Part shown: positions 3,740 through 55,782 of the stretch, one piece after another
Layout of the letters: each line of letters begins with the position of its first letter
Position numbering within the stretch: position 1 is the stretch's first letter
NCBI GenBank assembly: GCA_965215125.1
Contig: OZ244052.1
Coordinates: 832,713-896,712, forward strand
Source: an uncultured candidatus Porisulfidus sp.
GTDB lineage: Bacteria; Pseudomonadota; Gammaproteobacteria; Poriferisulfidales; Oxydemutatoraceae
Direction of reading: 5' to 3'
DNA: 64,000 nt
Translations under genes and position numbers: made by a program
The notes under the pieces: model-generated
The model's database searches: none
Told to the model about the DNA's origin: nothing
What the model saw: the letters and a program-made list of their open reading frames with translations, nothing else

Positions 3740-4012
3740 ATGACCCGCAAAGTTCACTGTTTGAAACTCGGAAAAGAAGCCGAAGGCTTGGATTATGTAC
3801 CCTATCCCGGTGAACTCGGACAACGTGTTTATGATAATATCAGCGCGCAAGTATGGCAGCAATGGGTCGACCATCAAACTATGCTGATCAACGAGTACCG
3901 CCTCACCCCGATGGAACCTAAAGCACGCAAATTCCTCGAGGATGAGATGGAGAAATTTCTGTTCGGCGAAGGCTCCGAAAAACCCAAGGAGTTTGTCGAC
4001 CCGAACGAATAG
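3740..4012 (+). CDS. yggX: Fe(2+)-trafficking / oxidative damage protection protein YggX
   Basis: 90 aa; [18 protein letters not shown]...[15 protein letters not shown] is typical of YggX; sits immediately downstream of mutY as in enterobacteria. Confidence 0.8.
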
Positions 4013-4057
4013 TCGTCTCGGACGATGATGCTAAATAATCGGCAACTATAACGGCAC

Positions 4058-4133
<76 letters not shown>

Positions 4134-4200
4134 TCGTTGTGAAACCCGTTTGCGACTATTCGACCCGGTGCATTTATAGACTATAAAATGAAGTAAGGAA

Positions 4201-6897
4201 ATGGCAACAAAACTAGTATTGGTAGACGGCACCGCTTATCTATATCGTGCGTATCACGCACTGCCACCTTTAACCGGGCCTGCAGGACAACCGATCGGGG
4301 CGGTCTTCGGCGTAGGGAAAATGTTAAAAGCACTGATTAGGCAAGAGACGCCCGATTATTTTGCGGTCGTGCTCGATGCGCACGGCAAAACCTTCAGACA
4401 CGAGCTATACCCTCCGTATAAAGCACAAAGGCCACCGGCACCGGAGGATTTGATTGCCCAATCGGACACTTTGAAACACCTTATCAACGAGCAAGGTTAC
4501 CCGCTATTGGAAGTCCCCGGTGTAGAGGCGGACGATGTCATCGGTACGCTGGCTCGCAGTGCCGAGGCGGCAGGTTGGGAGGTGCTGATCTCTACCGGCG
4601 ATAAAGATATGGCTCAGTTGATCTCCGAGCGTATTACGCTAGTTGATACGATGAAGAATCAACGCATCGACTCCGATGCAATACAAAAGAAATTCGGTGT
4701 GCTACCGGAGCAGATGATCGACTACCTAGCCTTGGCAGGAGACAGTGCCGACAATATCCCCGGAGTTGTCGGTGTCGGACCTAAAACCGCGGCGAAGTGG
4801 CTTTGCGAATATCAAAACCTAGACGAAGTTATTGCACACGCAGACTCTATCACCGGCAAGGGCGGCAAAGCCCTACAAGATGCACTGCCCAAGCTACCTC
4901 TTTATAAAGATTTGGTGACCATACGCTGCGATATAACGCTGGACCACACGATTGACCAGTTAAAAATTACCGCACCCGCACCTGAGCGGTTAATCGCTTT
5001 CTATCGTGAATACGGATTTACCCAATGGCTCAAAGAAGAAACCGACGAAGCTGCCGACACGGTCGCCGAGCCAAGCACACCGATCGAACAGCCTAAATAT
5101 CAACTGATTTTGACGCAAGACACATTGGATTATTGGCTGGAAAAACTAAAGTCGGCAGACTGCTTTGCACTCGATATAGAAACGACAAGTCTGGACTATA
5201 TGCAAGCGCAGATCGTGGGATTATCGTTTGCGGTTGCTGCCGGCGAAGCTGCATATCTGCCTGTGGCACACGATTATTGTGGTGCGCCTAAGCAGTTGTC
5301 CATAGATTTGGTCTTAGCGCAGCTGCGTCCTTTATTGGAAGATCGAAAGATCGGCAAATTAGGACACAACCTTAAATACGATATGGAAGTACTGCTGAAC
5401 TACGACATTCGCTTGCAAGGCATCAGACACGATTCTATGTTGGAATCGTACGCCTATAATTCGGTTGCGAGCAGGCATAACCTAAAAGAGCTCGCATACA
5501 AATACCTCAATATTCGGATGCAAACATACGAGGATATTACCGGCAAAGGTGTCAAGCAAAGACCATTTGTTCAGATCGCAGTGAGAACCGCCGCCGAATA
5601 CGCCTCAGCCGATGCCGATTATAGCTTGCAACTACATGAATATTTTCATCCTCGCTTGAAAAAAACCTTACCGTTGCTCAAGGTCTACGAGGAAATAGAA
5701 ATGCCGTTGTTGCCGGTCATCGCCGAGATAGAACGCACCGGCGTGCTGATCGATGCCGACCGTTTGTCCGAACACAGCCGTGAATTGCAAGAAGCAATCT
5801 CTCAAACCGAACAACAAATTTATCAACTGGCAGGACACGATTTTAATATCGCCTCACCCAAACAAATACAAACCGTGCTGTTCGACGAAGCGGAACTGCC
5901 GGTGATTAGCAAAACCCCCAAGGGTCAAGCCTCTACCTCCGAAGACGTGCTACAAGAACTCGCCCACGACCATGAACTCCCGAGATTGATCTTGCACCAT
6001 CGCTCGCTCAGCAAACTAAAATCAACCTACACCGACAAACTACCGCAGCTGATCAATGCCGAGACCGGGCGGGTACACACCTCTTATCACCAAGCGGTTA
6101 CCTCAACCGGACGCTTATCGTCGTCCGACCCCAACCTGCAAAACATTCCTATCAGAACCGCCGAAGGACGGCGCATACGCCAAGCCTTTATCGCCCGCAA
6201 AGGCTATTGCCTCATCGCCGCAGACTACTCGCAGATAGAAATGCGCATCATGGCACATGTATCCCAAGACCCGGGTCTATTGAATGTATTCCAAAAAGGT
6301 ATGGATATGCACCGCGCAACCGCTGCCGAGGTCTTCGGTTGCAAACCGGAGGCAGTCGATGACGAGCAACGACGCATTGCCAAAGCCATAAACTTCGGAC
6401 TGATTTACGGAATGTCGGCATTCGGTCTCGCAAGACAACTCAATATAGATAATAGAGAAGCGGCGGATTATGTGAAAACCTATTTTGAGCGGTTTGCCGG
6501 TGTGCGGACCTATATGGACGACACGCGTGAACAAGCGCGCAAACAAGGTTATGTGGAAACCATCATCGGTCGGCGGTTGTATTTGCCGGAAATCAACGCC
6601 AAGGATGCTCGCCGTAGACGCTACGCCGAGCGCACCGCAATCAATGCGCCGATGCAAGGGTCGGCTGCCGATATTATCAAACGAGCGATGATACGCATTG
6701 CCGAACAATTCAAGGACGACCCGAACGATGCGGTGATGATTATGCAGGTACACGACGAGCTAATTATAGAAGTGGCAGAACCGCATGCCGACGATGTAAT
6801 GAACAAATGCTGTGCCTTGATGGAGTCGGCGGTGGAACTTTCGGTGCCGCTAAAAGTCAACGCGAGTATCGGCAATAATTGGGACGAGGCGCACTGA
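4201..6897 (+). CDS. polA: DNA polymerase I
   Basis: 898 aa; 5-prime nuclease N-terminus (LVLVDGTAYLYRAYHALPPLT); 3-5 exo and polymerase motifs (RRxAKAINFGLIYG, QVHDELI). Confidence 0.95.
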   Translation: MATKLVLVDGTAYLYRAYHALPPLTGPAGQPIGAVFGVGKMLKALIRQETPDYFAVVLDAHGKTFRHELYPPYKAQRPPAPEDLIAQSDTLKHLINEQGYPLLEVPGVEADDVIGTLARSAEAAGWEVLISTGDKDMAQLISERITLVDTMKNQRIDSDAIQKKFGVLPEQMIDYLALAGDSADNIPGVVGVGPKTAAKWLCEYQNLDEVIAHADSITGKGGKALQDALPKLPLYKDLVTIRCDITLDHTIDQLKITAPAPERLIAFYREYGFTQWLKEETDEAADTVAEPSTPIEQPKYQLILTQDTLDYWLEKLKSADCFALDIETTSLDYMQAQIVGLSFAVAAGEAAYLPVAHDYCGAPKQLSIDLVLAQLRPLLEDRKIGKLGHNLKYDMEVLLNYDIRLQGIRHDSMLESYAYNSVASRHNLKELAYKYLNIRMQTYEDITGKGVKQRPFVQIAVRTAAEYASADADYSLQLHEYFHPRLKKTLPLLKVYEEIEMPLLPVIAEIERTGVLIDADRLSEHSRELQEAISQTEQQIYQLAGHDFNIASPKQIQTVLFDEAELPVISKTPKGQASTSEDVLQELAHDHELPRLILHHRSLSKLKSTYTDKLPQLINAETGRVHTSYHQAVTSTGRLSSSDPNLQNIPIRTAEGRRIRQAFIARKGYCLIAADYSQIEMRIMAHVSQDPGLLNVFQKGMDMHRATAAEVFGCKPEAVDDEQRRIAKAINFGLIYGMSAFGLARQLNIDNREAADYVKTYFERFAGVRTYMDDTREQARKQGYVETIIGRRLYLPEINAKDARRRRYAERTAINAPMQGSAADIIKRAMIRIAEQFKDDPNDAVMIMQVHDELIIEVAEPHADDVMNKCCALMESAVELSVPLKVNASIGNNWDEAH

Positions 6898-7029
6898 CGG
6901 CTCTGCACCAGAACATTTTACTCACTGTACAGATGCGACATAAATAAGCAGATATTCTCAGGAAAGTAAATCAAGCAATAGGTATAATAGTCGGTTATTA
7001 AAAGTACTCATACAGAAAAATTCATTTCC

Positions 7030-7806
7030 ATGATAATTTCCCACAAATTGCAAGTCATATTTATAAGACCAGTCAAGACTAGTGGTTCATCATTTGAAAC
7101 AGCACTAAAATATTATTGCGGTAAAGGTGATGTAGTTACAGATGATAAAAATTTTGTAAACTATTATAACGGTCATGATTTTACAAACGGCCACATAAGT
7201 GCTTCTGATATCAAGCGTAAGATACCGAAGAATATTTGGGATAATTACCTTAAAATATCTATTGTCCGCTGTATTTACGATTCTATAATTTCTTTATACT
7301 ATTGGGAACATATTGGGCTTAAAAAACCTCAACCTGTAAACTTTAGAACATATGTTTTACTTTCAGGGAATAGACAAATAGAACGTAATTTTAGAAGGCT
7401 TTGTGATGGTCAAAAATCTATCGTTGATTTTATTATTAGATATGAAAATGCAGACGAGGATATTACGGATTTAGAATGGAAAATAGGCTGTGTCGGCTTA
7501 CTAAACAAATATAAATCTAGGTCTGAAAAAACAAGAATTCGTCCTCACGGACAAGATATCTTCAAAGTTTACTCTAAGTACCCGATAGCGAGAGAACTAG
7601 TAGATACGCACTTCACCGAAGCTATGGAACGAAATGAACTTATTCAAAAATACTACCCGCTGTACAAGGAAAGGTTGAGCCGAAAAATTCCAGAACCGGG
7701 ATATCTTCCCAGAAAAACGGCGAAACTACTATTCTCTTTATATAATTATTATCCGATACGAAGATTGTATTATAAAAAACGATCCCGTTTTGAGACTGTA
7801 ATTTAA
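7030..7806 (+). CDS. sulfotransferase-fold protein (putative, PAPS-dependent)
   Basis: 258 aa in a visibly AT-rich tract; a 5-prime-PSB-like loop IRPVKTSGSSFE (compare the K-x-G-[ST]-[ST] motif of sulfotransferases); a 3-prime-PB-like segment IVRCIYDSIISLYYW (R...D...S.Y); no reliable homolog recall beyond the motifs. Confidence 0.4.
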   Translation: MIISHKLQVIFIRPVKTSGSSFETALKYYCGKGDVVTDDKNFVNYYNGHDFTNGHISASDIKRKIPKNIWDNYLKISIVRCIYDSIISLYYWEHIGLKKPQPVNFRTYVLLSGNRQIERNFRRLCDGQKSIVDFIIRYENADEDITDLEWKIGCVGLLNKYKSRSEKTRIRPHGQDIFKVYSKYPIARELVDTHFTEAMERNELIQKYYPLYKERLSRKIPEPGYLPRKTAKLLFSLYNYYPIRRLYYKKRSRFETVI

Positions 7807-9170
7807 ATTGTGTAAGTTCTAATTAAGATAAACTAGGTGGCAACACCAAACTAATAAAGGAGAACTTATGAAAGATATAAAAAGCATCGGGAAAGAATTA
7901 TCCCGTCATGTAAAGACCCAACAAGAGATGACCGATATCATCGGTCAGTTGATTAAGTCAATGATGGAAGGCATACTCAATGCGGAGCTGGACGACCATC
8001 TCGGCTATGAGAAAAACGACAAAGCATCCAAGCGTAGAAAGAATACCCGCAACGGGCATAGTGCCAAGACCTTAAAGACCAATTATGGGGATATAACGAT
8101 ACAGACACCGCGAGATCGGGAGGCGTCGTTTGAACCGATGATTGTGCCGAAAGGGAAAACCCGTTTAGACGGATTTGAGGATACGATATTGGCACTCTAT
8201 GCGCAAGGGATGACGGTGCGACAGATACAAGAGTCGATTAAAGAGTTGTATCATGGTGCGGAGATTTCTACTGCGGTTATCTCGAATGTCACCGATGCGG
8301 TGATAGACGAGGTGCGGACTTGGCAGAGCCGAGTGTTAGAGTGCCTCTATGTGGTGATGTATCTGGATTGCATCGTCGTCAAAGTGCGAGAGCAAGGCCG
8401 TATCATTAACAAGTCGATCTATGTTGCACTGGGCATAAAGCGCAGTGGACGCAAGGAATTACTCGGGTTGTGGATTGCCGAGACCGAAAGTGCTAAGTTC
8501 TGGTTAGCGATATTAACCGAGCTACAAAATCGGGGTGTGAAAGATATCTTGATCTGTTGCATAGATGGTCTGAAGGGTTTCGCAGAGGCGATTGCCAGCG
8601 TCTATCCGCAGGCAAAAATACAACTGTGTCTAGTCCACATGATGAGAAACTCGCTACGCTATGTTGCGACTAAAGATAAGAAAGCAGTCTCGGCAGCGTT
8701 AAAGAAGATATACAATAGTCCTACGGCGCAGGCTGCCGAGCAGGCGTTAGATGAGTTTGCCGATTGCTGGTCGGCAAAATATCCGAGTGTTGAGCGGTCG
8801 TGGCGCAATAACTGGGACAACCTGATTACGTTATTTGATTACCCGCCGGAGATTAGAAAAATTATCTATACAACGAATGCGATAGAAAGTCTCAATAGCG
8901 TGATTAGAAAATCCATCCGCAACCGGAAGATATTCCCGAGCGACCAATCGGCATTGAAAGTAGTTTATTTGGCAATCAAAAAAGCCTCTGCTCGCTGGAC
9001 GCTGCCGATACGAAATTGGATACCGGCGATGAACCGATTAGCTATTGAATACGAAGGTAGATTTGATATTGAGGAAAACGAAGTTACACAAAATAGTTAA
9101 CAGGCTCCCCGTTTTGGTCCCATTCCTTTTTTAAACAACGAAGATAAGCTAGTCTGATACATTCTTGAAA
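7805..9170 (+). mobile_element. IS256-family insertion sequence (boundaries approximate, terminal inverted repeats not identified)
   Basis: Transposase ORF 7868..9100 with a strong RBS (AAAGGAGAACTTATG); IS256 elements usually extend about 60-100 bp beyond each end of the ORF; I could not see convincing terminal IRs by eye. Confidence 0.45.
7868..9100 (+). CDS. IS256-family (mutator-type) transposase
   Basis: 410 aa; the N-terminal region LDDHLGYEKNDKASKRRKNTRNGHSAKTLKTNYGDITIQTPRDREASFEPMIVPKGKTRLDGFEDTILALYAQGMTVRQIQ is typical of IS256 transposases; DDE region present with the conserved C-terminal W...IE. Confidence 0.9.
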   Translation: MKDIKSIGKELSRHVKTQQEMTDIIGQLIKSMMEGILNAELDDHLGYEKNDKASKRRKNTRNGHSAKTLKTNYGDITIQTPRDREASFEPMIVPKGKTRLDGFEDTILALYAQGMTVRQIQESIKELYHGAEISTAVISNVTDAVIDEVRTWQSRVLECLYVVMYLDCIVVKVREQGRIINKSIYVALGIKRSGRKELLGLWIAETESAKFWLAILTELQNRGVKDILICCIDGLKGFAEAIASVYPQAKIQLCLVHMMRNSLRYVATKDKKAVSAALKKIYNSPTAQAAEQALDEFADCWSAKYPSVERSWRNNWDNLITLFDYPPEIRKIIYTTNAIESLNSVIRKSIRNRKIFPSDQSALKVVYLAIKKASARWTLPIRNWIPAMNRLAIEYEGRFDIEENEVTQNS

Positions 9171-9273
9171 ACCGTTAGCCGGATAACATAGTTACGTTCC
9201 CCCATTTGTCCAATATGTCATGGCATCGTACAGATTATTCTATAAATATGCTAATATACCAACTTGGTAATAC

Positions 9274-9489
9274 TTGAGAGCTAAAATGTCTATTTTAATG
9301 AAAATTAATATCAATGCCGTGCTACAGCACGGCGAGTTTCTGCGTCAAGTGCAGGAGCATCAAACCAAATCTTGGATAAAGGCCGGTATGGCCGGCCGTA
9401 AGCCGTCTCAGACCACTGCGCTGGATGCAATTCTAGAAATCGCCCAAAAGTACAAAAAAGAAGTCTTAGCGGCCTCTGAGAGAAGTTAG
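9274..9489 (+). CDS. hypothetical small protein
   Basis: 71 aa ORF between the IS and argC; no recognisable motif; coding status uncertain. Confidence 0.2.
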   Translation: MRAKMSILMKININAVLQHGEFLRQVQEHQTKSWIKAGMAGRKPSQTTALDAILEIAQKYKKEVLAASERS

Positions 9490-9604
9490 TAGATCGGCAA
9501 AGTTTTTGGATCAGTGCGAATAAGCGTTTTTATGTAAAATCACGATCGCCGAAGTTATGCACCGATTATAATAGTAAGTTACAGACAATAAAAGGAGATT
9601 AAAA

Positions 9605-9811
9605 ATGTCAGAAATCGCACTTTACAATGTACTAACAAAGTTAGGGTTAGACCATGACGAAGCAAAGGAAGCGGTTGCCGATATTGCTAGCACAAAGGAT
9701 ATGGCAACGAAGGTGGATCTAGCAAGCTTGGAGACAAGGCTAACAAATAGAATATATGCCGTCACTGGCATAATAATCGGAGCCGTCGGATTGATGATTA
9801 AGTTTTTATGA
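9605..9811 (+). CDS. DUF1640-like small coiled-coil protein with C-terminal membrane anchor
   Basis: 68 aa; excellent RBS AAAAGGAGATTAAAAATG; architecture MSEIALYNVLTKLGL..EAKEAVADIA...ATKVDLASLETRL....GIIIGAVGLMIKFL matches the bacterial DUF1640 pattern (short helix, charged coiled coil, hydrophobic tail). Confidence 0.45.
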   Translation: MSEIALYNVLTKLGLDHDEAKEAVADIASTKDMATKVDLASLETRLTNRIYAVTGIIIGAVGLMIKFL

Positions 9812-10091
9812 ATAGGATTGCCGGCAAAGAAAACCAAAAATAAACTAATTAGCAATAGTAAAAAGCCTGTTTGCAAAAAGCGCGAGGTTATTGTACTGAA
9901 AAAAAAGATCTTCCCCCAAATAGTAGACATTTTTTTATGCCCGCTTTGTGATAGATTTTTCATAATCTACGGGACACATATAGCCTAGTGCAGAATGCAT
10001 AAGCCACCCCGGCACAGGATGGGGATAAAGCGGTACATATCCGCTATTAGTGATAAAATACGGCACTAAACATTCACAACGAGGTTAAACA

Positions 10092-11111
10092 ATGCATTCC
10101 GTAGCGATCATAGGCGGTACCGGCTACACAGGGTACGAATTGATGCGTCTTTTGGTGCGTCATCCGCATATTAAACTCAGTCAAGTTGTATCTCGTAGCA
10201 AGGCGGGTTGCGCCATAGCAGAAGTATTTCCTAAAATGAAGGGACATACCGATTTGTGCTATACGCAAAGTTTTGCCCCCGACCTCGGTGCCGATTTAGT
10301 ATTTTTCGCAACACCCAACGGAACGGCAATGAAGCAAGCCGAAGCGTTGCTTGATTCGGGAATACGTATCGTGGATTTGGCAGCGGACTTCAGATTGAGC
10401 GAGGCAGACGAATGGAAGCATTGGTACGGAGAGGATCACACCTGCCCGCATTTATTGGAGAAGGCAGTCTACGGTCTAAGCGAAATGAATCGTAACCCTA
10501 TTGCCGATGCGACTTTGGTGGCTAACCCGGGCTGTTATCCGACTTCGGTGATACTCGGCTTAAAGCCTTTGATAGAAGCAGGCTATGCCGATATTTCATG
10601 TTTGATAGTCGATTCAAAATCGGGTGTAAGCGGGGCAGGTCGGCAAGCGAGTGTGGAATTGCTATTCGGAGAGTGTAGCGAAAACTTTAGAGCCTACAAA
10701 GCCTCCGGCCATAGGCATTGGCCGGAAATCAACCAACAATTATGCCGGATTGCCGGTGTCGAAGTCGGATTCGGTTTTACGCCCCACTTGCTACCGATTT
10801 TTCGCGGTCTGCAATCGAGCTTGTATATTAAAACGGCTGCCGAGCTATCGGAACTTCAGTACTGCTTAGAGCAGGCTTATGCAGATGAACCTTTCGTACA
10901 GGTCATGCCGCCCGATAGTCATCCACAAACCCGAGATGTGAGCGGCACCAATGTATGTTTGCTTGCGGTGCATAAACCGCAATACGGTGATATTGCAGTC
11001 GTGTTTTCGGTAATCGATAATCTGATCAAAGGGGCTGCCGGTCAAGCGGTGCAGAATATGAATTTGATGTTCGGCATAGATGAAACGGCAGGGCTTGTTG
11101 ATTTATACTAA
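10092..11111 (+). CDS. argC: N-acetyl-gamma-glutamyl-phosphate reductase
   Basis: 339 aa; VAIIGGTGYTGYELMRLL NAD(P)-binding start, NPGCYPT active-site cysteine region, length typical of ArgC. Confidence 0.9.
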   Translation: MHSVAIIGGTGYTGYELMRLLVRHPHIKLSQVVSRSKAGCAIAEVFPKMKGHTDLCYTQSFAPDLGADLVFFATPNGTAMKQAEALLDSGIRIVDLAADFRLSEADEWKHWYGEDHTCPHLLEKAVYGLSEMNRNPIADATLVANPGCYPTSVILGLKPLIEAGYADISCLIVDSKSGVSGAGRQASVELLFGECSENFRAYKASGHRHWPEINQQLCRIAGVEVGFGFTPHLLPIFRGLQSSLYIKTAAELSELQYCLEQAYADEPFVQVMPPDSHPQTRDVSGTNVCLLAVHKPQYGDIAVVFSVIDNLIKGAAGQAVQNMNLMFGIDETAGLVDLY

Positions 11112-11138
11112 AAGTCTATATCATTCAAAGAGGAATAT

Positions 11139-13412
11139 GTGAAATACCGAACATACGCCAAGAGATCAAAATCTACCGCAAACATTTTGGGACACGACTC
11201 GATGTATCTGCGCAAAGGAAGTGGTTTATTGCTTATCTTCATAGGCTTATATTTTCTGCTCTCAATGTTGAGTTATCAAGCGGACGACCCGTCGTGGGCA
11301 AATAATATCAGCATGGACGAGACGCAAAACTTGGGAGGAATCGTCGGTGCATGGGTTGCCTATACTTTTTATTTTCTTTTCGGGGCACCGTCGCTCGTGC
11401 TGTTGCCGCTGGCTATTTTTACAAGTGCCCGCCGTTTGTTCAATCCTAATTACACACAGCTCTCTATATGGAATAGGCACCTAATTATTTGGTTGGCTGC
11501 GTTGCTGGCGATAATTGCTTGTTGTGGATTGGCAACCTTGCATTTTGTCACACCTGATCTTCCTACCAGTAGCGGTGGTCGTCTGGGTGAATTGGTTATA
11601 CAGAGTTTTTATCCGCTATTCGGTATGATAGGTTCCACCTTGTTATTGCTGGGTTTGATCGTAGGCAGCCTGACGGTGATGATGGATATCGCATGGCTGA
11701 AGATAGCGGATGCGGTCGGTTTGGCGTTGTTCTCGACTGCACAATGGTTCGTGGATACCAAGCAGTGGATACAAAGCCGTCTATTGGTTCACGAACGTTC
11801 CGTAGAACGCGCCCGAGCAGTCTCAAAGCGTAAGAAAAAACTCGTCAACAGAACCCCTCCCAAAATAGGAAATATGCTCAACAGTCTGTCGCCCGGCACG
11901 AAAAGTACGAAAAAACAACAAATCGCATTGCCGATCGAAGGAAAAGAGGAATTACCTTCGTTGAGTCTACTAGATCGAGAAACAGCATCGGTCTCGAGTT
12001 ACTCTAAAGACGAACTGGAAAAACTTGCCAGACAACTGGAAATTAAATTAGAAGATTTCGGCATCGTAGCTCAGGTGACCGAAGCACAACCCGGCCCTGT
12101 GGTCACCCGTTTTGAAGTGATGCCGTCTCCCGGCACCAAAGCGAGCAGTATTAGCAACCTCCAAAAAGACCTTGCGCGATCCTTATTGCTCCCCAGCATC
12201 CGAGTAGTGGAAGTGATCCCGGGGAAATCGTCGGTCGGCATAGAAGTGCCGAATAGAACGCGATCGGTTGTCAAATTCGGTGAACTCTTGCAGTCCGAAG
12301 AATACGAAAAACAGCACTCGCCGTTAACGCTTGCATTAGGCAAGGATGTTGCAGGTCAAGCGATATTCATAGATTTAGAAAAGTTACCCCACCTGCTGGT
12401 TGCCGGCACCACCGGTTCGGGCAAATCGGTTGCAGTACATTCTATGCTGGCGAGCTTGTTATTTCGTAATCTCCCCTCGCAAGTTCGTTTGATTTTGGTA
12501 GACCCTAAAATGCTTGAACTTAAATCGTATGAGAATATCCCTCATTTATTGTTACCTCTGATTACCGATATGCAGGAAGCTGCCGGTGCCTTACGGTGGG
12601 CAGTTGCCGAAATGGAACGGCGCTATCGCTTGATGGCGGCACTCAATGTACGCAACATCACATCGTATAACAATAAAGTTACTAAGGCTAAAAAAAGAAG
12701 GGAACCGATTGCCGACCCGCTCTTTGAGAGTGAAGACGAAGCCGCAATAGCTCCAACACTCGACGAGATACCGTATATCGTCATCGTCATCGATGAATTC
12801 GCCGATATGATTATGATGGTGGGCAAGAAAGTAGAAGAACTGATTATCCGACTGGCTCAAAAAGCACGTGCTGCGGGAATACATTTGGTACTGGCTACAC
12901 AAAGACCTTCGGTTGATATTATTACCGGTCTGGTCAAAGCGAATGTGCCGGCGAGAATCGCATTTCAAGTTTCCTCAAAGGTCGATTCGCGCACCATATT
13001 GGATCAAAACGGTGCCGAACAGCTGCTGGGGCAAGGCGATATGCTGTGTCTGATGCCGAGCTACGCAACGCCGATGCGTGTACACGGTGCTTTCATATCG
13101 GATAGCGAAGTGCAAGCGGTCACCGACTTTTTACGCAAACAAGGCGAGCCGTTTTATATAGAAAACCTGAATACATCGGACAACGGGGAGGTCGGTTTTA
13201 ATGCTGCAGAAACCGAAGACCCGCTCTATAAGCAAGCGGTGGAAATCGTAACCGAATCGGGTAAAGCGTCTATCTCTTATCTACAACGCCGCCTCAAAAT
13301 AGGTTATAACCGAGCGGCACGCATGATAGAAGAAATGGAAAGTGCCAAGATAGTTTCCAGCATACAATCGAGCGGATCCCGCCAAGTATTGGTCTCGTCG
13401 TCTAGAAAGTGA
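11139..13412 (+). CDS. ftsK: DNA translocase FtsK
   Basis: 757 aa; N-terminal membrane segments, a linker, a Walker A (VAGTTGSGKSV) motor domain and a C-terminal gamma winged-helix (SISYLQRRLKIGYNRAARMIEEME); followed by lolA as in many proteobacteria. Confidence 0.9.
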   Translation: MKYRTYAKRSKSTANILGHDSMYLRKGSGLLLIFIGLYFLLSMLSYQADDPSWANNISMDETQNLGGIVGAWVAYTFYFLFGAPSLVLLPLAIFTSARRLFNPNYTQLSIWNRHLIIWLAALLAIIACCGLATLHFVTPDLPTSSGGRLGELVIQSFYPLFGMIGSTLLLLGLIVGSLTVMMDIAWLKIADAVGLALFSTAQWFVDTKQWIQSRLLVHERSVERARAVSKRKKKLVNRTPPKIGNMLNSLSPGTKSTKKQQIALPIEGKEELPSLSLLDRETASVSSYSKDELEKLARQLEIKLEDFGIVAQVTEAQPGPVVTRFEVMPSPGTKASSISNLQKDLARSLLLPSIRVVEVIPGKSSVGIEVPNRTRSVVKFGELLQSEEYEKQHSPLTLALGKDVAGQAIFIDLEKLPHLLVAGTTGSGKSVAVHSMLASLLFRNLPSQVRLILVDPKMLELKSYENIPHLLLPLITDMQEAAGALRWAVAEMERRYRLMAALNVRNITSYNNKVTKAKKRREPIADPLFESEDEAAIAPTLDEIPYIVIVIDEFADMIMMVGKKVEELIIRLAQKARAAGIHLVLATQRPSVDIITGLVKANVPARIAFQVSSKVDSRTILDQNGAEQLLGQGDMLCLMPSYATPMRVHGAFISDSEVQAVTDFLRKQGEPFYIENLNTSDNGEVGFNAAETEDPLYKQAVEIVTESGKASISYLQRRLKIGYNRAARMIEEMESAKIVSSIQSSGSRQVLVSSSRK

Positions 13413-14128: not shown

Positions 14129-14941
14129 TTATCCGTATCTGGCAAGATAAAGCTTTATGCCTCGGTATCGCTTAATGGTAAGGAGTTTCTGAAAGGCATT
14201 TTTTCTAGTTATTAAATTTTGCTCGCTTAATTTTTTTTGAAAAAACTTAAGATCACTGGAAGAGTTAAAGCCCCTCCAATCTCTGTTTCCTCCTTGTTGC
14301 GAGAGTTTTTTATAGTAGTTATAGTTTTCTATAAAAGCCTTGTAACGCTCATAGGATCCATTCAGAAAATATCTAATGCGAGATATTTCTCTTTCCGGGT
14401 ATGTTAGTAAATCTTCATAGTATATAACCATTTTGTCTCCCTTAAAACGATCGTAGGCAACTATTAAATCTAAATAATCGAAAGCTGTACCGATAAAATT
14501 TATAACGTTCCTAGGTCTACTAATAAGTTCATGATAATCTCTAATTATCAGCAAAATAGCCGATACAAAAGTCGCTTTATAAGCCCAATGAGATTTATAA
14601 AGAATAAAGGGATTTTTTGGATTTACATGAGCTAAGGGATGTTCTTTGCCAGGGAAAGTATTTAGATAAATAGGAACATCTTTTGCATTACCTATGCCTC
14701 CATAAGTAGGGGAACTGGTGAGATATTCGGCTATAAAACGAACCCAATGATTACCGCTTTGAGGAGACGACCATAGTGCCCTATGATTGAAGGCAAGGTT
14801 ACGGGTAAAATAGCCAAAGTAATCTATCTTATTCGGATTAGTTAGAAATAAATAAAATAATAAGTCTGCGATTCTTTTTGAAAAAAATGAGTTACTATCA
14901 AGTCTATTGAATACAAGTCTATTGAATAATTTGCGATACAT
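14129..14941 (-). CDS. sulfotransferase-family protein (putative)
   Basis: 270 aa in an AT-rich tract; WSSPQSGNHWVRFI resembles the PKSGTTW 5-prime-PSB loop of sulfotransferases; IIRDYHELISRP resembles the RNPKD..VS 3-prime-PB motif. Confidence 0.5.
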   Translation of the reverse strand: MYRKLFNRLVFNRLDSNSFFSKRIADLLFYLFLTNPNKIDYFGYFTRNLAFNHRALWSSPQSGNHWVRFIAEYLTSSPTYGGIGNAKDVPIYLNTFPGKEHPLAHVNPKNPFILYKSHWAYKATFVSAILLIIRDYHELISRPRNVINFIGTAFDYLDLIVAYDRFKGDKMVIYYEDLLTYPEREISRIRYFLNGSYERYKAFIENYNYYKKLSQQGGNRDWRGFNSSSDLKFFQKKLSEQNLITRKNAFQKLLTIKRYRGIKLYLARYG

Positions 14942-18087: not shown

Positions 18088-18531
18088 TTGGTAAATAATA
18101 TGAACCAACAAGATATTAAACGGGCAGGACTTAAGGTTACGGTACCGAGAATCAAAATACTAGAAATAATGGAGGGAGCGGACTCTCGCCATGTAACCCC
18201 TGAACACATACACCGAAAGCTAACCTTAAAAGGGGAGAATGTTGGTTTGGCAACTATCTATAATGTGCTTGCCCAATTTGAAGCATCCGGACTGATACTG
18301 CGCCGCTATCTAAAAAAAGGACAAGCCTGTTACGAGATCAACCGAGGCGAACATCACGATCACATGGTCTGCACCCAGTGCGGTAGAATAGTCGAATTCG
18401 TCGATCAAACCATAGAAAAACGTCAAGACGCTATTGCCAAGAAACACGGTTTTAAACTCAACGACCACTCTTTGGTGATGTACGTGGATTGCACCTCAAA
18501 AAATTGTAAATATCTAAATCAATCCGAGTAG
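18088..18531 (+). CDS. fur: ferric uptake regulator Fur
   Basis: 147 aa; AGLKVTVPRIKILEIM DNA-binding helix; HHDHMVC and CxxC metal sites. Confidence 0.9.
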   Translation: MVNNMNQQDIKRAGLKVTVPRIKILEIMEGADSRHVTPEHIHRKLTLKGENVGLATIYNVLAQFEASGLILRRYLKKGQACYEINRGEHHDHMVCTQCGRIVEFVDQTIEKRQDAIAKKHGFKLNDHSLVMYVDCTSKNCKYLNQSE

Positions 18532-18656
18532 AACCACCGATTGAGCCGGTAGGTCAATCGGCGTGACATTGTGCAGAACCTTAACATGGGTGTGTAGGGC
18601 GGACCATTCCCCTCCTGTGGAGGGGTGGCAGGCGAAGCCTGACGGGGTGGTTGTGT
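18529..18656. repeat. composite repeat element (module a + module c)
   Basis: gaaccaccgattgagccggtaggtcaatcggcgtgacattgtgcagaaccttaacatgggtgtgtagggc...attcccctcctgtggaggggtggcaggcgaagcctgacggggtggtt sits directly after the fur stop codon. Confidence 0.8.
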
Positions 18657-18767
18657 CGTATTTGCACTATTTTATACATTCATCCATTTGATCTATGGGA
18701 ACCATTATTTGTTTATGCAGGGTGGTTGGTACTGCGCATAACAGCACTCGAGGGAAATGGTCAGCCC

Positions 18768-21436: not shown

Positions 21437-21550
21437 CCACAACCACCCCATGGAAAGGTTTTACATTTTGTATATATGCTAGGGTTTTGCACAATGTCAC
21501 GCCGATTGACCTACTGGCTCAATCGGCGGTTCTATTGCGCCTGCCATCCT
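21437..21550. repeat. composite repeat element (module b + module a, inverted orientation)
   Basis: cacaaccaccccatggaaaggttttacattttgtatat...ttgcacaatgtcacgccgattgacctactggctcaatcggcggttctattgcgcctgcca; gives rise to the spurious ORF 21364..21588. Confidence 0.8.
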
Positions 21551-21682
21551 TTCACAAGAGGGTAGTAACTCGCGCCATAGGACATTAAAAGCAACTGGTA
21601 CCACAAAGTAGTATAAAATTGCTTTATTGATTTGTACGCACCACACCGAGAAACCGATACCCGTATTATTTACATAGCATAC

Positions 21683-22543
21683 ATGAATATCAGATTTACA
21701 AAAATGCACGGTTGCGGCAACGATTTTATGTTAATCAACCGTCGCGAATATTCTACCCTGTTTGCTTTGGATGAAGAATCCATTCGCCGATGGGCGGATC
21801 GCCGTACCGGCGTCGGTTTTGACCAACTATTAATAATAGATAATCCTTCGCAATCGGGTGTTGATTTTGATTATCGCGTCTACAATGCCGACGGTAGCGA
21901 ATCGGCTCAATGTGGTAACGGCGCGCGGTGTGTAGCTCGCTTTGTTACCGAAAAGGGGCTGACCGATAAGAAAACGATACGGGTGCGCACGGTAGAGCGC
22001 ATCATAGAGATGGCTGTCCAGGATGATAATAACATCGCAGTTGATATGGGTGCGGTAGTATTTGACCCTGAGCGTATCCCGTTTAATCCTAGCGGGTTGG
22101 TTGCAGTCGGTGAACGGATAGAAGAGAAAATGTACACGGTTAAATCTCCCGCACTGGAAGTTTGCTTCGGAACTGTATCGTTCGGTAATCCCCATGCGGT
22201 CATCAAAGTCGAGAATATAAACACAGTGCCGATCGCCGAGATAGGTGCGGCTTTACAAACACATCGCTGTTTTCCGACTAGCGTCAATGTGTCTTTCGTG
22301 GAAGTACGAGATAATGTTTTGCATGCGCGGGTCTACGAGCGCGGCGCAGGTGAAACTCAATCATGCGGGAGCGGTGCTTGTGCGGTTGCAGTGATCGCTC
22401 GTATCCAAGGATGGATTCCTCAAACTATAGATTCGGTGCCGGTACGATTAACCGGAGGTTTGTTGAACATACGATTTGAGGAGAATAGAATTAAACTAGT
22501 AGGACCGGCGGAAGCGGTCTTTGAAGGTCGTATTAAGATATAG
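21683..22543 (+). CDS. dapF: diaminopimelate epimerase
   Basis: Start moved to the internal Met (MNIRFTKMHGCGNDFMLIN is the canonical DapF N-terminus); second active-site Cys region GNPH..SCGSGACA; followed by DUF484-xerC as in E. coli dapF-yigA-xerC. Confidence 0.9.
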   Translation: MNIRFTKMHGCGNDFMLINRREYSTLFALDEESIRRWADRRTGVGFDQLLIIDNPSQSGVDFDYRVYNADGSESAQCGNGARCVARFVTEKGLTDKKTIRVRTVERIIEMAVQDDNNIAVDMGAVVFDPERIPFNPSGLVAVGERIEEKMYTVKSPALEVCFGTVSFGNPHAVIKVENINTVPIAEIGAALQTHRCFPTSVNVSFVEVRDNVLHARVYERGAGETQSCGSGACAVAVIARIQGWIPQTIDSVPVRLTGGLLNIRFEENRIKLVGPAEAVFEGRIKI

Positions 22544-22546
22544 TTT

Positions 22547-23269
22547 ATGGTAGCAAAGAATAAAACTACAAGTATAGACGAGCAACAGGTCATAGACTTC
22601 CTAACTCGGCATACTAATTTTTTCAACGAGTACCCCGAGTTATTGCTTAAACTATCATTGCCGTACAAAGACGGCAAGGTGTTATCTCTATCTCAAAAGC
22701 AAGCAGAGGTTTTAAGAATGGAAACTGCCTCAATGCGAAAAAAGTATTCCCAACTTGAGCAGGAAATCACGACACAAATAGATATCGTCAAGGAAAACGA
22801 AAGGCTTAGCATTTGTTTGCATCGTTTGTCGCTAAAATTACTCCATAAACGAGAAGTTGAAGCCATCGTCTCCGAGACGATAAAAACATTGAGGGCACAA
22901 TTTCCCTCCAATCAAATTATTATTAGCCTGTTACCGCCATACTCCGATTCATCTAAAACAGCACGTGCGCTCAATGCAAACGATCCGATATTGAGGGCAC
23001 TGCTTGCATCGGTATTTAAGATCAACAAACCGGACTGTGGTCCGTTCAACGGTGCGGTTCAAAAAGCATTATTCGGAAACTTTGCGCAGCGCATACGCTC
23101 GTCTATCGTAATGCCGCTGAGATTCCATAACCAAAAGTTGGGGCTTTTATTGTTCGGCAGTCCTCGCCTGAATGCTTATGTCCCCGGTCAAAGCACAATG
23201 CTATTGGTACAGTACGGTGAATTGATTGCAGCGGCTATCGCAGCTTGTGCAAAAACCCGAAAGGACTGA
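22547..23269 (+). CDS. DUF484-family protein (YigA-like)
   Basis: 240 aa; coiled-coil N-terminus and a GAF-like C-terminus; conserved position between dapF and xerC. Confidence 0.65.
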   Translation: MVAKNKTTSIDEQQVIDFLTRHTNFFNEYPELLLKLSLPYKDGKVLSLSQKQAEVLRMETASMRKKYSQLEQEITTQIDIVKENERLSICLHRLSLKLLHKREVEAIVSETIKTLRAQFPSNQIIISLLPPYSDSSKTARALNANDPILRALLASVFKINKPDCGPFNGAVQKALFGNFAQRIRSSIVMPLRFHNQKLGLLLFGSPRLNAYVPGQSTMLLVQYGELIAAAIAACAKTRKD

Positions 23270-24198
23270 TGGGCCCTATTCAAGCGTGTGATCAGTTTCT
23301 TAACGCATTAAAAGCCGAACGAAACTATTCAAATCATACTATCGATAATTACCGTCGCGACATTCTACGCTTCCTGAAGTACATCTCGGAAATCGGAGCA
23401 GACTGGGGCAAACTGGAGGAAATACAGATATTAAACTATCTATCGTCGCGTCATACTTCCGGTATCAAAGGTAAAACACTCGCTCGAGAGTTATCGTCGC
23501 TGCGACACTTTTTTAGACATTGCATAGCGCAAGGCTACAACTGCAATTATCCGTTTGACGGAATTAAAGCACCCTTAGATCAAAAGAAGCTACCCAACAC
23601 ATTGAGTGTCGACCAAGTCTCGCAATTACTCGACCAAGGTCAAAGCGATTGCTCACCGTTGCTGATTAGAGATATAGCGATTATGGAATTGATTTATTCA
23701 TCGGGCTTGCGCTTGTCCGAACTGGTCTCGGTAGATTTGGGTAGCATTGATATGAGCAACCGGATGATCCGCGTGATGGGAAAAGGTAGTAAGGAGCGCG
23801 AGATACCGGTCGGCGTTCGTGCAATTAAAGCGATTGAAAGATGGCTAAAAATACGTCAAACGATAAGTTGTAGTGGCGAGAAAGCACTATTTTTGAGTCG
23901 CAACGGAAAACGCCTGAGCGCGCGCAACGTGCAGTTGCGCCTCAAGCAATACGCTCAATCTCAAGGCATGCAGCAACATCTGCATCCCCACAAACTTCGC
24001 CATTCTTTCGCAACGCATATTCTTGAATCGTCCGGTGATTTGCGCGCCGTGCAAGAACTATTAGGACACGCCGATATCGGTACGACACAAATATATACGC
24101 ACTTAGATTTTCAGCACCTTGCGAAAATCTACGACCAAGCGCATCCTCGTGCGCGTAAACAACAGCGCAGTAAAGATAAAAAGAGCAAAGAACACTGA
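23245..24198 (+). CDS. xerC: site-specific tyrosine recombinase XerC
   Basis: 317 aa; N-terminal core-binding domain (NTIDNYRRDI) and C-terminal catalytic R..HxxR..Y (HKLRHSFATHILE...IYTHL). Confidence 0.85.
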   Translation: MCKNPKGLMGPIQACDQFLNALKAERNYSNHTIDNYRRDILRFLKYISEIGADWGKLEEIQILNYLSSRHTSGIKGKTLARELSSLRHFFRHCIAQGYNCNYPFDGIKAPLDQKKLPNTLSVDQVSQLLDQGQSDCSPLLIRDIAIMELIYSSGLRLSELVSVDLGSIDMSNRMIRVMGKGSKEREIPVGVRAIKAIERWLKIRQTISCSGEKALFLSRNGKRLSARNVQLRLKQYAQSQGMQQHLHPHKLRHSFATHILESSGDLRAVQELLGHADIGTTQIYTHLDFQHLAKIYDQAHPRARKQQRSKDKKSKEH

Positions 24199-24210
24199 AA
24201 TCAAGTATAT

Positions 24211-24552
24211 CTACTTAGGTCTATAATCGGCGGAGGTTTCATTCACGGACACTCGCCTATGATCAAAAACCACATACTTTTCCTTGATGACTTTCTTAAA
24301 ATCATCCGATATGTTTTGCCAATCTAAAACATCTACTTTGAAAGGAAGATCCGATTCTTCAAAGTCAAATTTAAGTAAGTTCATAACCTGCAAAGGTATT
24401 TTGTTTTGTGAAACGATAGCCAAGTCAAGATCGGAACTATTATTCGCAGTCTGCTTTACGCGCGAACCGAAAACCCAAATCGTTGCATCGGGAACATGCT
24501 TTTTAAGAATACGCCGAACAATTTTCTCGTGACGAGGTCGCAGGCTAATCAT
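24211..24552 (-). CDS. minimal nucleotidyltransferase (MNT), antitoxin-type partner of HEPN
   Basis: 113 aa; pol-beta-type NTase motif GSRVKQTANNSSDLDLAIV (GS...DxD); overlaps the upstream HEPN gene by 8 bp. Confidence 0.7.
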   Translation of the reverse strand: MISLRPRHEKIVRRILKKHVPDATIWVFGSRVKQTANNSSDLDLAIVSQNKIPLQVMNLLKFDFEESDLPFKVDVLDWQNISDDFKKVIKEKYVVFDHRRVSVNETSADYRPK

Positions 24553-24958
24553 TTAATTTCCGTTCCATTTGTTTGAGGACATATTGAACCTCTTGCAGAA
24601 AATCATCGGTTGCGTAAAAAACTTGATCGGCAATGCTTAAATCGTAAGTATGGGAACTATTATCTCTATTATTTTTATAGACGAACCATTTCTCGGCATC
24701 CGATAAAATCCCTACTTTTTGACCGTAACGAAAGATATCCCGAATAGGCATTTGATCGAAGTTTTCGTCGTAATATTCCTTTAAGTAGCGAACCAGCATT
24801 TTGCGCGCCATTTCATAGCTAATAACAAATGCCTGAATAGCCCCTCTTTTTAGTGAGCGCTCGTGTTTTTCGTCCGTCCCCTTATATTTGTTATAGATAG
24901 TCAGAGACTCTTCCAATGCTACGATAGTTTTCTTAAAACTACTTAAATCAAGTGCCAT
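24545..24958 (-). CDS. HEPN-domain protein, HI0074-family nucleotidyltransferase substrate-binding protein (toxin-type)
   Basis: 137 aa; HI0074-like sequence and a C-terminal Rx4H HEPN motif (RDNSSH). Confidence 0.7.
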   Translation of the reverse strand: MALDLSSFKKTIVALEESLTIYNKYKGTDEKHERSLKRGAIQAFVISYEMARKMLVRYLKEYYDENFDQMPIRDIFRYGQKVGILSDAEKWFVYKNNRDNSSHTYDLSIADQVFYATDDFLQEVQYVLKQMERKLND

Positions 24959-25084
24959 AGGTTCCCATTCAATAATTAGAGATTTCGGAAAATATTTTTG
25001 TTAAATAAAACGATTTCCCATATCCCACATATTTTACCATTCCTTTGATTCGTGATAATTCATGGATGTATTCTGTACCGACAT

Positions 25085-25203
25085 AACGCTTTAAGGTTCT
25101 GCACAACGTCACACCAATAGACCTATCGGGCAGACATCATAATTGCCGATTGACCTACTGGTTCAATCGGCGGCTCTATACTGCCCCTACAAACTCAATC
25201 GGT
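25085..25203. repeat. repeat-family copy (module a variant, inverted)
   Basis: ggttctgcacaacgtcacacc...gccgattgacctactggttcaatcggcggctctatactgcccc...caatcggtggttc overlaps the 3-prime end of the glycosyltransferase gene. Confidence 0.7.
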
Positions 25204-26406
25204 GGTTCTCTTTTTTTCAATACCGGCAACCTTGTCATATCTAAGGGATTTTTTCCAGGCCTTATCCACTCTAGCTTTCCGTACAAGATCTTTTTGAGGA
25301 ATAGAAATATAATTTGAAATACTTTTATGATATCTGATTTTTCGGTTGTCCATAGAAACGATTTTTATTGCAGGATTAAAGAATCTAATAGTGTCTATAA
25401 AAAAAGAACCCACAGTGTAAATCATTTTGACTTTTGCTAATGTCAAAATGTCAATCAAAGCATCTTGTCTTTGTTGATGCCCTGCATACGGTTCATGGCG
25501 GTGTAGTGATCGCCTGTCCTTAGACCGTTTTATATCTCTGCTAATTACTCTACCGGAAAATGCTTCGTGTATTGCATCAACGAAATGTGTATTATCCGAA
25601 CATGCATAGATCTGACAATGATCATCTATTACTTGTTTAAGATAATCAATATAGCTATCTATGCTAATTATTCTATTTTCGTCAATAACATCGGTTTGAC
25701 GATAATGTACTCCTATACACTCTTCTTTAATATTTGCATTACTCCATTGATCCGCTTGCTGTTGTATTTCCTGCTTGATAGATAGCTTTGAAATTATTTT
25801 ATATCCGTATTCGCTGGAAATTTTAGACTTAGCGAATTCTTCCCATAGGCTAGGGTATATCTTTTCTCTATAACACAGATCCACCAGCGGTTTCTTTAAT
25901 TTTGTAAAATTCTCCGGATGGTATGTTTTTGCATAATTCAAAACAGGATTTTCAAAGAAATTGCTACCACCGGTGATAAAAGTATCGGGGAAAGTAAACT
26001 TGACATTAATGCCTAGTTTTTCACACAACCAAGCTACTCCAATTATTCTAGGAAAATAACTTCCTAGCGCAGGACAATCTATTTTTACATAAGCATAATC
26101 GGCCAAAGAGGTTTTGCGGTGCGCAGTATATTGTTTGAAGAAATCTTTATATAAAAAATCATATGCTTTTTTGACGGGTTCATAATTATATCTAAATTCA
26201 AACTCTATTTTTTCAGGGAATCCATTATTGAAACAAGCAAAAGGGTGTCGCATCAAAAACAAGGTGTTCCTAATCAATTGCCCATAGAATCTTTTATATC
26301 TAGTATTGGAGCACTGCTCGGAAACACAGAAAAAAACATAGGCAATTATTATTCTAGCTTTAAGTATGTGAAAGTAATTAGTGACTTTAAAAAACATTTT
26401 GTTCAA
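25195..26406 (-). CDS. fucosyltransferase-superfamily glycosyltransferase (FUT8/NodZ/GT11-like motifs)
   Basis: 403 aa, AT-rich; motif I IGVHYRQTDV (compare GVHVRRTDK); motif II IYACSDNTHFVDAIHEAF (compare FLATDDP...EA); motif III DILTLAKVKMIYTVGSFF (compare DIYILSQADFLVCTFSSQ); assignment by motif only. Confidence 0.45.
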   Translation of the reverse strand: MNKMFFKVTNYFHILKARIIIAYVFFCVSEQCSNTRYKRFYGQLIRNTLFLMRHPFACFNNGFPEKIEFEFRYNYEPVKKAYDFLYKDFFKQYTAHRKTSLADYAYVKIDCPALGSYFPRIIGVAWLCEKLGINVKFTFPDTFITGGSNFFENPVLNYAKTYHPENFTKLKKPLVDLCYREKIYPSLWEEFAKSKISSEYGYKIISKLSIKQEIQQQADQWSNANIKEECIGVHYRQTDVIDENRIISIDSYIDYLKQVIDDHCQIYACSDNTHFVDAIHEAFSGRVISRDIKRSKDRRSLHRHEPYAGHQQRQDALIDILTLAKVKMIYTVGSFFIDTIRFFNPAIKIVSMDNRKIRYHKSISNYISIPQKDLVRKARVDKAWKKSLRYDKVAGIEKKRTTD

Positions 26407-26517
26407 TAGACCAATTTTTGATATAGCGTATATTTTACTATCTTAAGGTGAGACAACCAAGTGTGTGCCGATGCATTGCGCCAATACGGACATTGTGTTT
26501 GCCCATTGAGCAGACAT

Positions 26518-28298: not shown

Positions 28299-28299
28299 C

Positions 28300-28630
28300 G
28301 CAAAAATAGAATCGCCGATTAAGCCGGTAGGTCAATCGGCGTGACTTTGTGCAGAACCTCAACATGATTGCTAAATGCATGCATTACAAAATGTAATAGC
28401 TGCTTGCGCCACCCAATTACGCAAACCACCTGCGCCGTATGGTTTTGGTTTCCATAAATCGGGTGGATGTATAAATTGTTCAGATACGACACAACCACCC
28501 CATGGAAAGGCTTTACATATTGTACTATGTACAAAGGTTCTGCACAAAGTGACACCACTTGTGCTACTGCAACAAGCGGTGGTTCTATTGCGCCTGCCAC
28601 CCCTCCACAGGAGGGGAATTGACTCGTGCA
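28300..28630. repeat. large composite repeat block (module a, module b, module a-inverted, module c-inverted)
   Basis: gccgattaagccggtaggtcaatcggcgtgactttgtgcagaacctcaacatg ... acacaaccaccccatggaaaggctttacatattgtactatgtacaaaggttctgcacaaagtgacaccacttgtgctactgcaacaagcggtggttctattgcgcctgccacccctccacaggaggggaatt; produces the overlapping spurious ORFs 28319..28642, 28371..28631 and 28375..28698. Confidence 0.8.
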
Positions 28631-55777: not shown

Positions 55778-55782
55778 ACACA

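Follow-up and report, generated by a model that had tools for sequence, protein, structure and literature searches.

The locus at 7030..9170 of a stretch of Candidatus Porisulfidus DNA (contig OZ244052.1) was analysed computationally. The whole stretch, 64,000 nt long, is called the window here, and coordinates given without a locus or contig name refer to it. The locus is probably best read as two unrelated things superimposed, a resident sulfotransferase (ST) gene whose product would act on a glycan and a recent, complete insertion sequence (IS) of the IS256 family. ST and IS do not make up a single islet. The IS entered the ST gene later and independently, as shown by its position inside the open reading frame (ORF), with its own 8-bp duplication, and by the empty corresponding site in the related genome OZ244779.1 (L001). 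The locus was resolved into the following features.

7030..7806, plus strand: ST gene as now read, 258 aa; native over 7030..7791 (254 codons), with the last 4 codons and the stop taken from the IS left end.
7784..7791, no strand: left 8-bp target-site duplication CCCGTTTT, a direct repeat, single-copy at the empty site in L001.
7792..9107, plus strand: complete IS256-family IS, 1316 bp; 3 identical copies elsewhere have the same bounds.
7792..7819, plus strand: left terminal inverted repeat GAGACTGTAATTTAAATTGTGTAAGTTC, 28 nt, from a repeat search.
7868..9100, plus strand: transposase, DDE Mutator/IS256 type, 410 aa, with a good upstream Shine-Dalgarno sequence (AAGGAG).
9080..9107, minus strand: right terminal inverted repeat, reverse complement GAGCCTGTTAACTATTTTGTGTAACTTC, from a repeat search.
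9108..9115, no strand: right 8-bp target-site duplication CCCGTTTT, a direct repeat.
9116..9157, plus strand: stranded native ST 3' end, 13 codons GPIPFLNNEDKLV and a stop, from in silico rejoining.

The IS left end falls 15 bp within the annotated ST ORF, and the final codons E-T-V-I-stop are IS sequence; the transposase does not simply follow the ST gene, as a sequence-only reading of this DNA had described it. In silico excision of 7792..9115 yielded a 267-aa ORF ending in RSRFGPIPFLNNEDKLV and a stop, the 13 native codons having been displaced to 9116..9157. The restored protein ends in KLV, and the alleles that relatives carry in the same slot have matching ends (KVKLV, KIKLV and DRTLV). 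When the structure of P0007, an intact homologue, was modelled, its 16 C-terminal residues had a predicted local distance difference test score (pLDDT) below 50, and the fold was confident to about residue 259. On this model the IS exchanged a flexible C-terminal tail (native end GPIPFLNNEDKLV) for ETVI and left the predicted catalytic domain intact. The truncated enzyme may still be active, because its folded catalytic domain would be untouched.

The transposase matched NF033543 (429 bits, model positions 1-336 of 338) and PF00872 (400 bits, model positions 13-376 of 379), which confirms its assignment to the IS256 family. No terminal inverted repeats had been seen in the sequence-only reading, and the element had been suspected of being truncated or divergent; that suspicion did not hold. 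Both the inverted repeats and the 8-bp duplications that it had proposed to look for were found. The inverted repeats, at 7792..7819 and 9080..9107, are 28 nt long and imperfect (21/28 matching; GAGaCTGT... and GAGcCTGT...). Their pattern matched twice in the window, once at each IS end, and not at all in 100 shuffles. The direct repeat CCCGTTTT (8 bp) borders the IS at 7784..7791 and 9108..9115. Further contigs, all from a single metagenome sample, carry IS copies (L082, L083 and L084) that were 100% identical over exactly 1316 bp and diverged right outside. Each of these has a distinct 8-bp duplication (TTAACCAG in L082, GAATAATG in L083, TCGGAATC in L084), all flanks are different, and these further copies stand without any ST gene beside them. 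L001 holds the uninterrupted site: window 6501..7791 aligns with L001 7405..8723 and window 9109..10279 with L001 8717..9881, the two alignments overlapping in L001 by the duplicated bases. The inverted repeats, the defined ends and the identical copies with their own 8-bp duplications thus show an entire element with clear limits and recent activity; it is not truncated, and its divergence is not unusual. It resembles the IS256 family (prototype IS256 of Staphylococcus aureus) in its single DDE Mutator-type transposase, its length of ~1.3 kb, its imperfect terminal inverted repeats (~26-28 nt) and its 8-bp target duplication (8-9 bp in the family). It is a new member in a sponge-symbiont genome, in which nothing unusual was seen.

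The two ORFs, 7030..7806 (plus strand, 258 aa) and 7868..9100 (plus strand, 410 aa), are enclosed by polA (4201..6897) and argC (10092..11111). GC content of the ST ORF is 33.3%, and its GC at third codon positions (GC3) is 0.27; polA has 50.5% and argC 48.9% GC (GC3 0.49-0.55). The IS/transposase segment has 45.3% GC and GC3 of 0.53, on a par with the window mean of 45.4%. An AT-richer segment spanning both genes had been proposed; the comparison with core genes upheld this for the ST gene and not for the IS. The AT-rich part of the locus is the ST gene alone, since the IS has window-like GC, and the islet is therefore the first gene only. The annotation logic is corrected in two respects: the IS has cut off the C-terminal end encoded by the ST gene, and it belongs to no islet.

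Occupancy of the polA-argC slot and substitution rates were compared with the nearest genomes, which are metagenome-assembled: Candidatus Oxydemutatoraceae OZ244779.1 (L001), and Candidatus Porisulfidus OZ241323.1 and CBDAVG010000002.1. Porisulfidus is listed among known sponge symbionts (genome note, PMC12988363). The slot carries an ST gene in all three of these related species-level genomes (4/4 with the window), and the ST ORFs are intact in 4/4 slot genomes. Protein identity to the window is 89-96% for flanking proteins (polA 94-96%) and 55-61% for ST. Synonymous (dS) and non-synonymous (dN) rates were estimated by the Nei-Gojobori method (NG86), which is rough on AT-biased genes, a point that tells against leaning on them heavily. 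Between the window and L002 or L005, ST dS was 0.53-0.62 and polA/argC dS 0.43-0.51, with ST dN of 0.31-0.34 and core dN of 0.03-0.05. Between L002 and L005, ST dS was 0.29 and polA/argC dS 0.27/0.31, with ST dN of 0.10 and core dN of 0.02-0.04. ST dS was thus core-like in 3/4 genome pairs with flank estimates, and ST dN was about tenfold core dN. With dN/dS of 0.36-0.6, against about 0.06-0.1 for the core genes, the ST gene stands apart from its neighbours in these comparisons. Because the slot is filled in the relatives and ST dS resembles the core values on either side, the ST gene is not a recent acquisition: it occupied the slot before these species diverged. On the preferred reading it is a long-resident gene that evolves fast at non-synonymous sites with its PAPS-binding residues kept (PAPS, 3'-phosphoadenosine 5'-phosphosulfate), and the IS transposed very recently into its last 13 codons, duplicating 8 bp.

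The dS values for L001 departed from this pattern. Between the window and L001, ST dS was 0.51 against a core value of 0.19, and the ST1-like islet at 14129..14941 had a dS of 0.087 against 0.25-0.45 for its flanks. These two values are decoupled from the flanks in opposite directions, which indicates that islet alleles have been exchanged between lineages. The allele closest to the window ST (~70% aa identity: 72% by BLASTP, 68-71% in global alignment; 79% nt) was found in L003, in another slot. That slot (L003 9970..13734, corresponding to window 21575..26418) follows dapF-DUF484-xerC and a nucleotidyltransferase toxin-antitoxin pair; it contains an ST gene, a methyltransferase gene and an inverted, split NodZ-like copy, and the window equivalent holds a NodZ-like gene only. 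L001 also carries a second ST copy, P0007, in the region 9591..11270 (equivalent to window 9989..10279), bracketed by a 291-bp direct duplication of the argC upstream/5' region that leaves a 94-aa argC fragment. This is the footprint expected if a circular fragment with the allele of another strain had integrated by a Campbell-type event. Every ST paralogue in the relatives is likewise AT-rich.

The sequence-only reading had joined the ST gene and the IS256 transposase into a single AT-rich islet of recent arrival, as one among several gained piecemeal by horizontal transfer. That reading draws on the strongly atypical ST composition, on the adjoining mobile element, on the swapping of islet alleles evident in L001 and on the residence of the closest ST allele in another slot. 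Joint acquisition is contradicted, and the reading as a whole is highly improbable, in view of the core-like composition of the IS, the position of the IS within the ORF with its own duplication and the uninterrupted L001 site, the same IS standing elsewhere without an ST gene, and the ST-filled slot in all four genomes compared, with dS equal to core dS in 3/4 pairs. The relatives that fill the slot are not distant ones, as their polA identities show.

The identification of the ST was made at the level of its family and fold. Both motifs that had been reported for ORF 7030..7806, KTSGSS and R..D..S.Y, are present in the 258-aa protein (VKTSGSS, residues 15-21; RCIYDSIISLY, residues 80-90). 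Homologues were collected (n=67), and among 53 aligned, 49 matched PF03567 Sulfotransfer_2 (best 1.5e-14) and 16 matched PF00685. Two paralogues in the same genome, P0054 and P0057, exceed the Pfam cut-off (37 bits vs 22). When the family profile was run against the PDB, 26/28 matches were sulfotransferases, including all significant ones (best E 8.5e-5), and the remaining two, both weak, were cat allergen. The profile alignment places R80...S88 on the RNxKDxxVS 3'-phosphate motif of cytosolic SULTs (RNAKDVAVS and RNPKDCLVS in solved SULTs). Six residues, K16 (in KTSGSS), S21, H55, R80, S88 and E139, do not vary among the 53 sequences, whose identity falls as low as 28%. An AlphaFold model of the ST had a pLDDT of 91.7 and a predicted template-modelling score (pTM) of 0.88; in it the KTSGSS loop follows strand E9-12, and K16 corresponds to the phosphosulfate-loop Lys. 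H55, a putative catalytic residue, lies 4 residues off the position aligned to the SULT catalytic His, at the edge of the local alignment. The protein falls within the sulfotransferase fold, and we accept the fold and a predicted PAPS site at family and fold level. It has no signal peptide or membrane segment and is cytoplasmic, originally of 267 aa. It belongs to a clade related to Sulfotransfer_2, whose close members (≥34% identity) occurred only in Candidatus Porisulfidus/Candidatus Oxydemutatoraceae-type genomes, from gammaproteobacterial sponge symbionts, and in unnamed metagenome contigs, and the nearest relatives outside the symbiont clade are at most 30% identical. The gene appears to carry its own TATAAT box, and no recognisable Shine-Dalgarno sequence precedes its ATG.

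Several results weigh against the reading of this gene as a glycan sulfotransferase. An hmmscan of the 258-aa protein against Pfam and NCBIfam gave no ST family at E≤1, which, read literally, is the outcome that the sequence-only reading had said would refute its own call, so that the call stands on the family and fold evidence and not on the protein's own profile search. Foldseek matches of the ST model to the PDB were weak (best E 6.7e-3; template-modelling score 0.48). The PAPS synthesis genes cysC, cysDN and sat were not among the ~45 ORFs scanned in the 64-kb window. The symbiont ST paralogues lie among housekeeping genes and not in polysaccharide clusters, and the case for a glycan is thus built on more remote members of the family and on the linkage of ST genes with NodZ-like ones.

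The neighbours of 28 distant ST homologues from other phyla were surveyed. The commonest were GT1/GT2 glycosyltransferases, Wzx-type flippases, RmlD, GDP-mannose dehydratase, capsule synthesis proteins and other sulfotransferases. Together with the alternating arrays of ST and NodZ-like genes described below, these neighbourhoods support the view that the ST family acts on a glycan and that sulfation and fucosylation are functionally linked. In the mechanism proposed, the ST would be a cytoplasmic PAPS-dependent enzyme that sulfates a hydroxyl group on a sugar of a glycan precursor, at the cytoplasmic face, and diversified ST paralogues with fucosyltransferases would give a variable sulfated, fucosylated surface polysaccharide.

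A genuine PAPS-dependent ST could instead act on small molecules, such as host or symbiont sterols, phenolics, lipids or secondary metabolites. The top structural and profile matches of the ST are cytosolic small-molecule SULTs (SULT7A1, SULT1B1, SULT3A1 and StaL), the protein is soluble and stand-alone, outside polysaccharide clusters in the symbionts, and sponges contain an abundance of sulfated metabolites, sterols among them. This alternative is rather unlikely, given that the Pfam family matched by the homologues, Sulfotransfer_2, is a carbohydrate-ST family, that distant homologues sit in polysaccharide clusters, and that ST genes tightly alternate with NodZ-like fucosyltransferase genes.

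It was also considered whether the ST gene is a remnant without current function, decaying under relaxed selection and, struck by the IS, on its way to becoming a pseudogene. The ratio dN/dS was 0.36-0.86, against 0.06-0.12 for neighbours, and the higher range is also the value expected from relaxed constraint. The conserved KLV end, which the IS has removed, suggests that the lost tail matters. Both observations count against a functional enzyme here, as do the lack of a recognisable Shine-Dalgarno sequence at the ST ATG and the fragments of the related families elsewhere (NodZ-like pieces in L010, the split copy in L003). Decay is nevertheless unlikely: each of the four slot genomes keeps an intact ORF although dN is ~0.3, none of the 53 sequences departs from the catalytic and PAPS-binding residues, the ST family is expanded and not shrinking, and the segment lost to truncation is predicted to be disordered. 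The preferred reading of a resident, glycan-directed ST interrupted at its 3' end by an unrelated IS was therefore retained.

Two other AT-rich single-gene islets had been reported in the window, and their composition was confirmed.

14129..14941, minus strand: second AT-rich islet, Sulfotransfer_1/3-like gene, 270 aa, 33.5% GC, between lolA and smpB.
25195..26406, minus strand: third AT-rich islet, NodZ-like (GT23-type) fucosyltransferase-family gene, 33.7% GC, from family-level matches.

GC3 is 0.27-0.30 in all three islet genes. The claim that these two islets encode carbohydrate-modification enzymes held at family level. The protein of ORF 14129..14941 contains a PQSGNHW loop and a YYEDLL motif, and its own top Pfam match had an E of 0.14. 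Among 37 homologues, 24 matched PF00685 Sulfotransfer_1 and 7 matched PF13469 Sulfotransfer_3. Nearly all PDB matches of the family profile, and all significant ones, were sulfotransferases (best E 7.9e-6). In this family PxSGNHW replaces the usual PKSGTTW loop, without conservation of the Lys in the phosphosulfate loop, which is Q in the window protein. The donor chemistry of the family may therefore be different, or the proteins may be inactive.

ORF 25195..26406 had no Pfam match of its own and contains a HYRQTD motif. PF05830 NodZ was matched at E≤0.01 by 13/38 of its homologues (best 3.5e-6), and the best PDB match of the family profile was NodZ 2hhc (E 1.4e-5). The ORF opens at TTG and encodes 403 aa, and the deposited protein P0152 has 352 aa; the true start of the gene is probably internal, downstream of 26406. 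Some NodZ-like homologues have an extra rhodanese domain (PF00581).

All three islet families are multicopy. In the loci examined, Sulfotransfer_2-like copies numbered at least 3 in this genome and at least 7, 11 and 7 in the relatives. Some are lone genes between housekeeping genes (e.g. pyrD|ST|hda), and in L010/L080, L012 and L013 ST and NodZ-like genes alternate in arrays, which strengthens the earlier idea of a sulfation/fucosylation toolkit. The arrays (L080 2437..12935 in the tyrS-grpE interval of OZ241323.1, and also L010, L012 and L013) hold at least 5 Sulfotransfer_2-like genes, with interleaved NodZ-like genes or fragments and two rve-type IS transposases. They look like a nursery, or a graveyard, for cassettes.

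Taken by itself, 7030..9170 is an ordinary locus that combines new members of two known kinds: a Sulfotransfer_2-like enzyme of divergent sequence and an IS of the IS256 family. The window ST has its fold in common with PF03567 Sulfotransfer_2 (the HS2ST and CHST family, with bacterial members in polysaccharide clusters), and the likeness extends to the phosphosulfate-loop K16, the Arg-x7-Ser 3'-phosphate motif (R80/S88) and the family matches of its homologues. It differs in that the window protein itself falls below a reportable score, in that the symbiont genes stand alone, are AT-rich, occur in several copies and lie dispersed between housekeeping genes, and in that the slot subgroup has an added ~40-aa C-terminal tail ending in KLV. 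The rhizobial NodH (sulfotransferase)/NodZ (alpha-1,6-fucosyltransferase) system offers a parallel in a host-associated bacterium, as ST and NodZ-like families co-occur and partly alternate here. The similarity of the 25195 family to NodZ is remote, as the 13/38 count above indicates; unlike in the rhizobial system, the sequence examined showed no genes of the nodABC type for chitin-oligomer synthesis, and copy numbers are far above those of rhizobia. Variable surface-glycan loci (O-antigen and capsule loci; the Helicobacter pylori fucosyltransferases of Lewis-antigen mimicry) have several traits in common with the islet genes: a GC content below that of the genome, rapidly evolving proteins, alleles exchanged between lineages while the place on the chromosome is conserved, and life in association with a host. 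The symbiont genes differ from these in being dispersed singly and not in one cluster, and no phase-variable repeat tracts were noticed by eye (no systematic search was made).

Searches of the paper library found no description of the pattern across the genomes. Candidatus Porisulfidus/Oxydemutatoraceae carry large ST-like and NodZ-like families of foreign-looking composition in fixed housekeeping slots, and the islet proteins evolve ~10x faster than their neighbours, with alleles apparently swapped between lineages. A literature search found nothing on sulfotransferase or NodZ-like families in Porisulfidus, Oxydemutator or other sponge symbionts. The glycan epitope of sponge self-recognition is beta-GlcNAc3S-(1->3)-alpha-Fuc on the aggregation factor (PMC8271808, PMC7828597). 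Because sulfated, fucose-containing glycans are the currency of sponge cell recognition, the islet genes are candidates for host recognition of the symbiont. The scattered AT-rich repertoire (Sulfotransfer_2-, Sulfotransfer_1/3- and NodZ-like; respectively at least 7-11, several and several per ~2.2-2.9 Mb genome) might then be a glycan-diversification system that displays a variable sulfated, fucosylated surface glycan, possibly mimicking or engaging the host epitope. This proposal is quite improbable as it stands, and the mimicry or recognition role, attractive as it is, is speculative. If it were true, the symbiont glycan would be a molecular password by which the bacterium is tolerated rather than eaten by the sponge, and allele turnover at fixed slots would be driven by host or phage selection. 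The recognition idea is testable by glycomics and enzyme assays.

Further elements were recorded between the IS and argC and in other intergenic regions of the window.

9286..9489, plus strand: small ORF, 67 aa from ATG, common to L001 and frameshifted there.
9605..9811, plus strand: small ORF, 68 aa, with a hydrophobic C-terminus, conserved in L001; its sole family match is a weak one to XhlA (E 0.017).
25096..25190, minus strand: structured repeat with hairpin core GCCGATTGA-N9-TCAATCGGC, directly downstream of the NodZ-like gene; fold z-score -3.4.
18527..18660, 21483..21534, 25096..25190, 28270..28362, 31733..31784, 39378..39470, 42904..42949, 44332..44389, 49576..49674, 55780..55949, 59329..59383 and 63808..63853: dispersed repeats.

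The two small ORFs are shared with L001 only and are absent in L002 and L005. The dispersed repeats belong to at least 3 families of short intergenic sequences resembling miniature inverted-repeat transposable elements or repetitive extragenic palindromes, with ends like terminal inverted repeats (GGGGCTGTTGAMAAAGT) and a hairpin core. The same hairpin repeat flanks ST genes in relatives, on both sides of the L002 ST gene in direct orientation (9581..9868 and 10869..11026 of L002). It lay within ~300 bp of the ST 3' end at 7/13 loci, which are non-independent and represent ~4 independent slots. A role of the hairpin in integron-cassette or attC-like mobilisation was rejected, as 34 copies occur in 391 kb, in intergenic regions generally, and there is no associated integrase. 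The link between hairpin and ST genes is a suggestive association and not a mobilisation mechanism.

An Rfam scan of the segment gave nothing beyond tRNA-Phe at 4058, and matches in a promoter scan were not above the shuffled expectation. A terminator scan found 8 terminators against 2.7 expected; all are on the minus strand, and none is therefore usable for the plus-strand ST and IS genes. The tRNA-Phe (GAA) gene lies at 4058..4133 (plus strand), directly upstream of polA, and a minus-strand ORF that overlaps it (3918..4232) is spurious. The small signal recognition particle RNA (54008..54104, minus strand) adjoins dnaX. A SulP-family sulfate permease with a STAS domain (29742..31613, plus strand) and a fused SoxY-SoxZ protein (58462..59271, minus strand) fit a sulfur-oxidising lifestyle with ready access to sulfate. 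Other genes of the window, all on the minus strand, include the substrate-binding subunit of a nucleotidyltransferase toxin-antitoxin pair (24545..24958), a Fic/DOC-domain protein with DUF4172 (34107..35228) and a TnpB (IS605 OrfB/Cas12f-like) gene (48269..49477).

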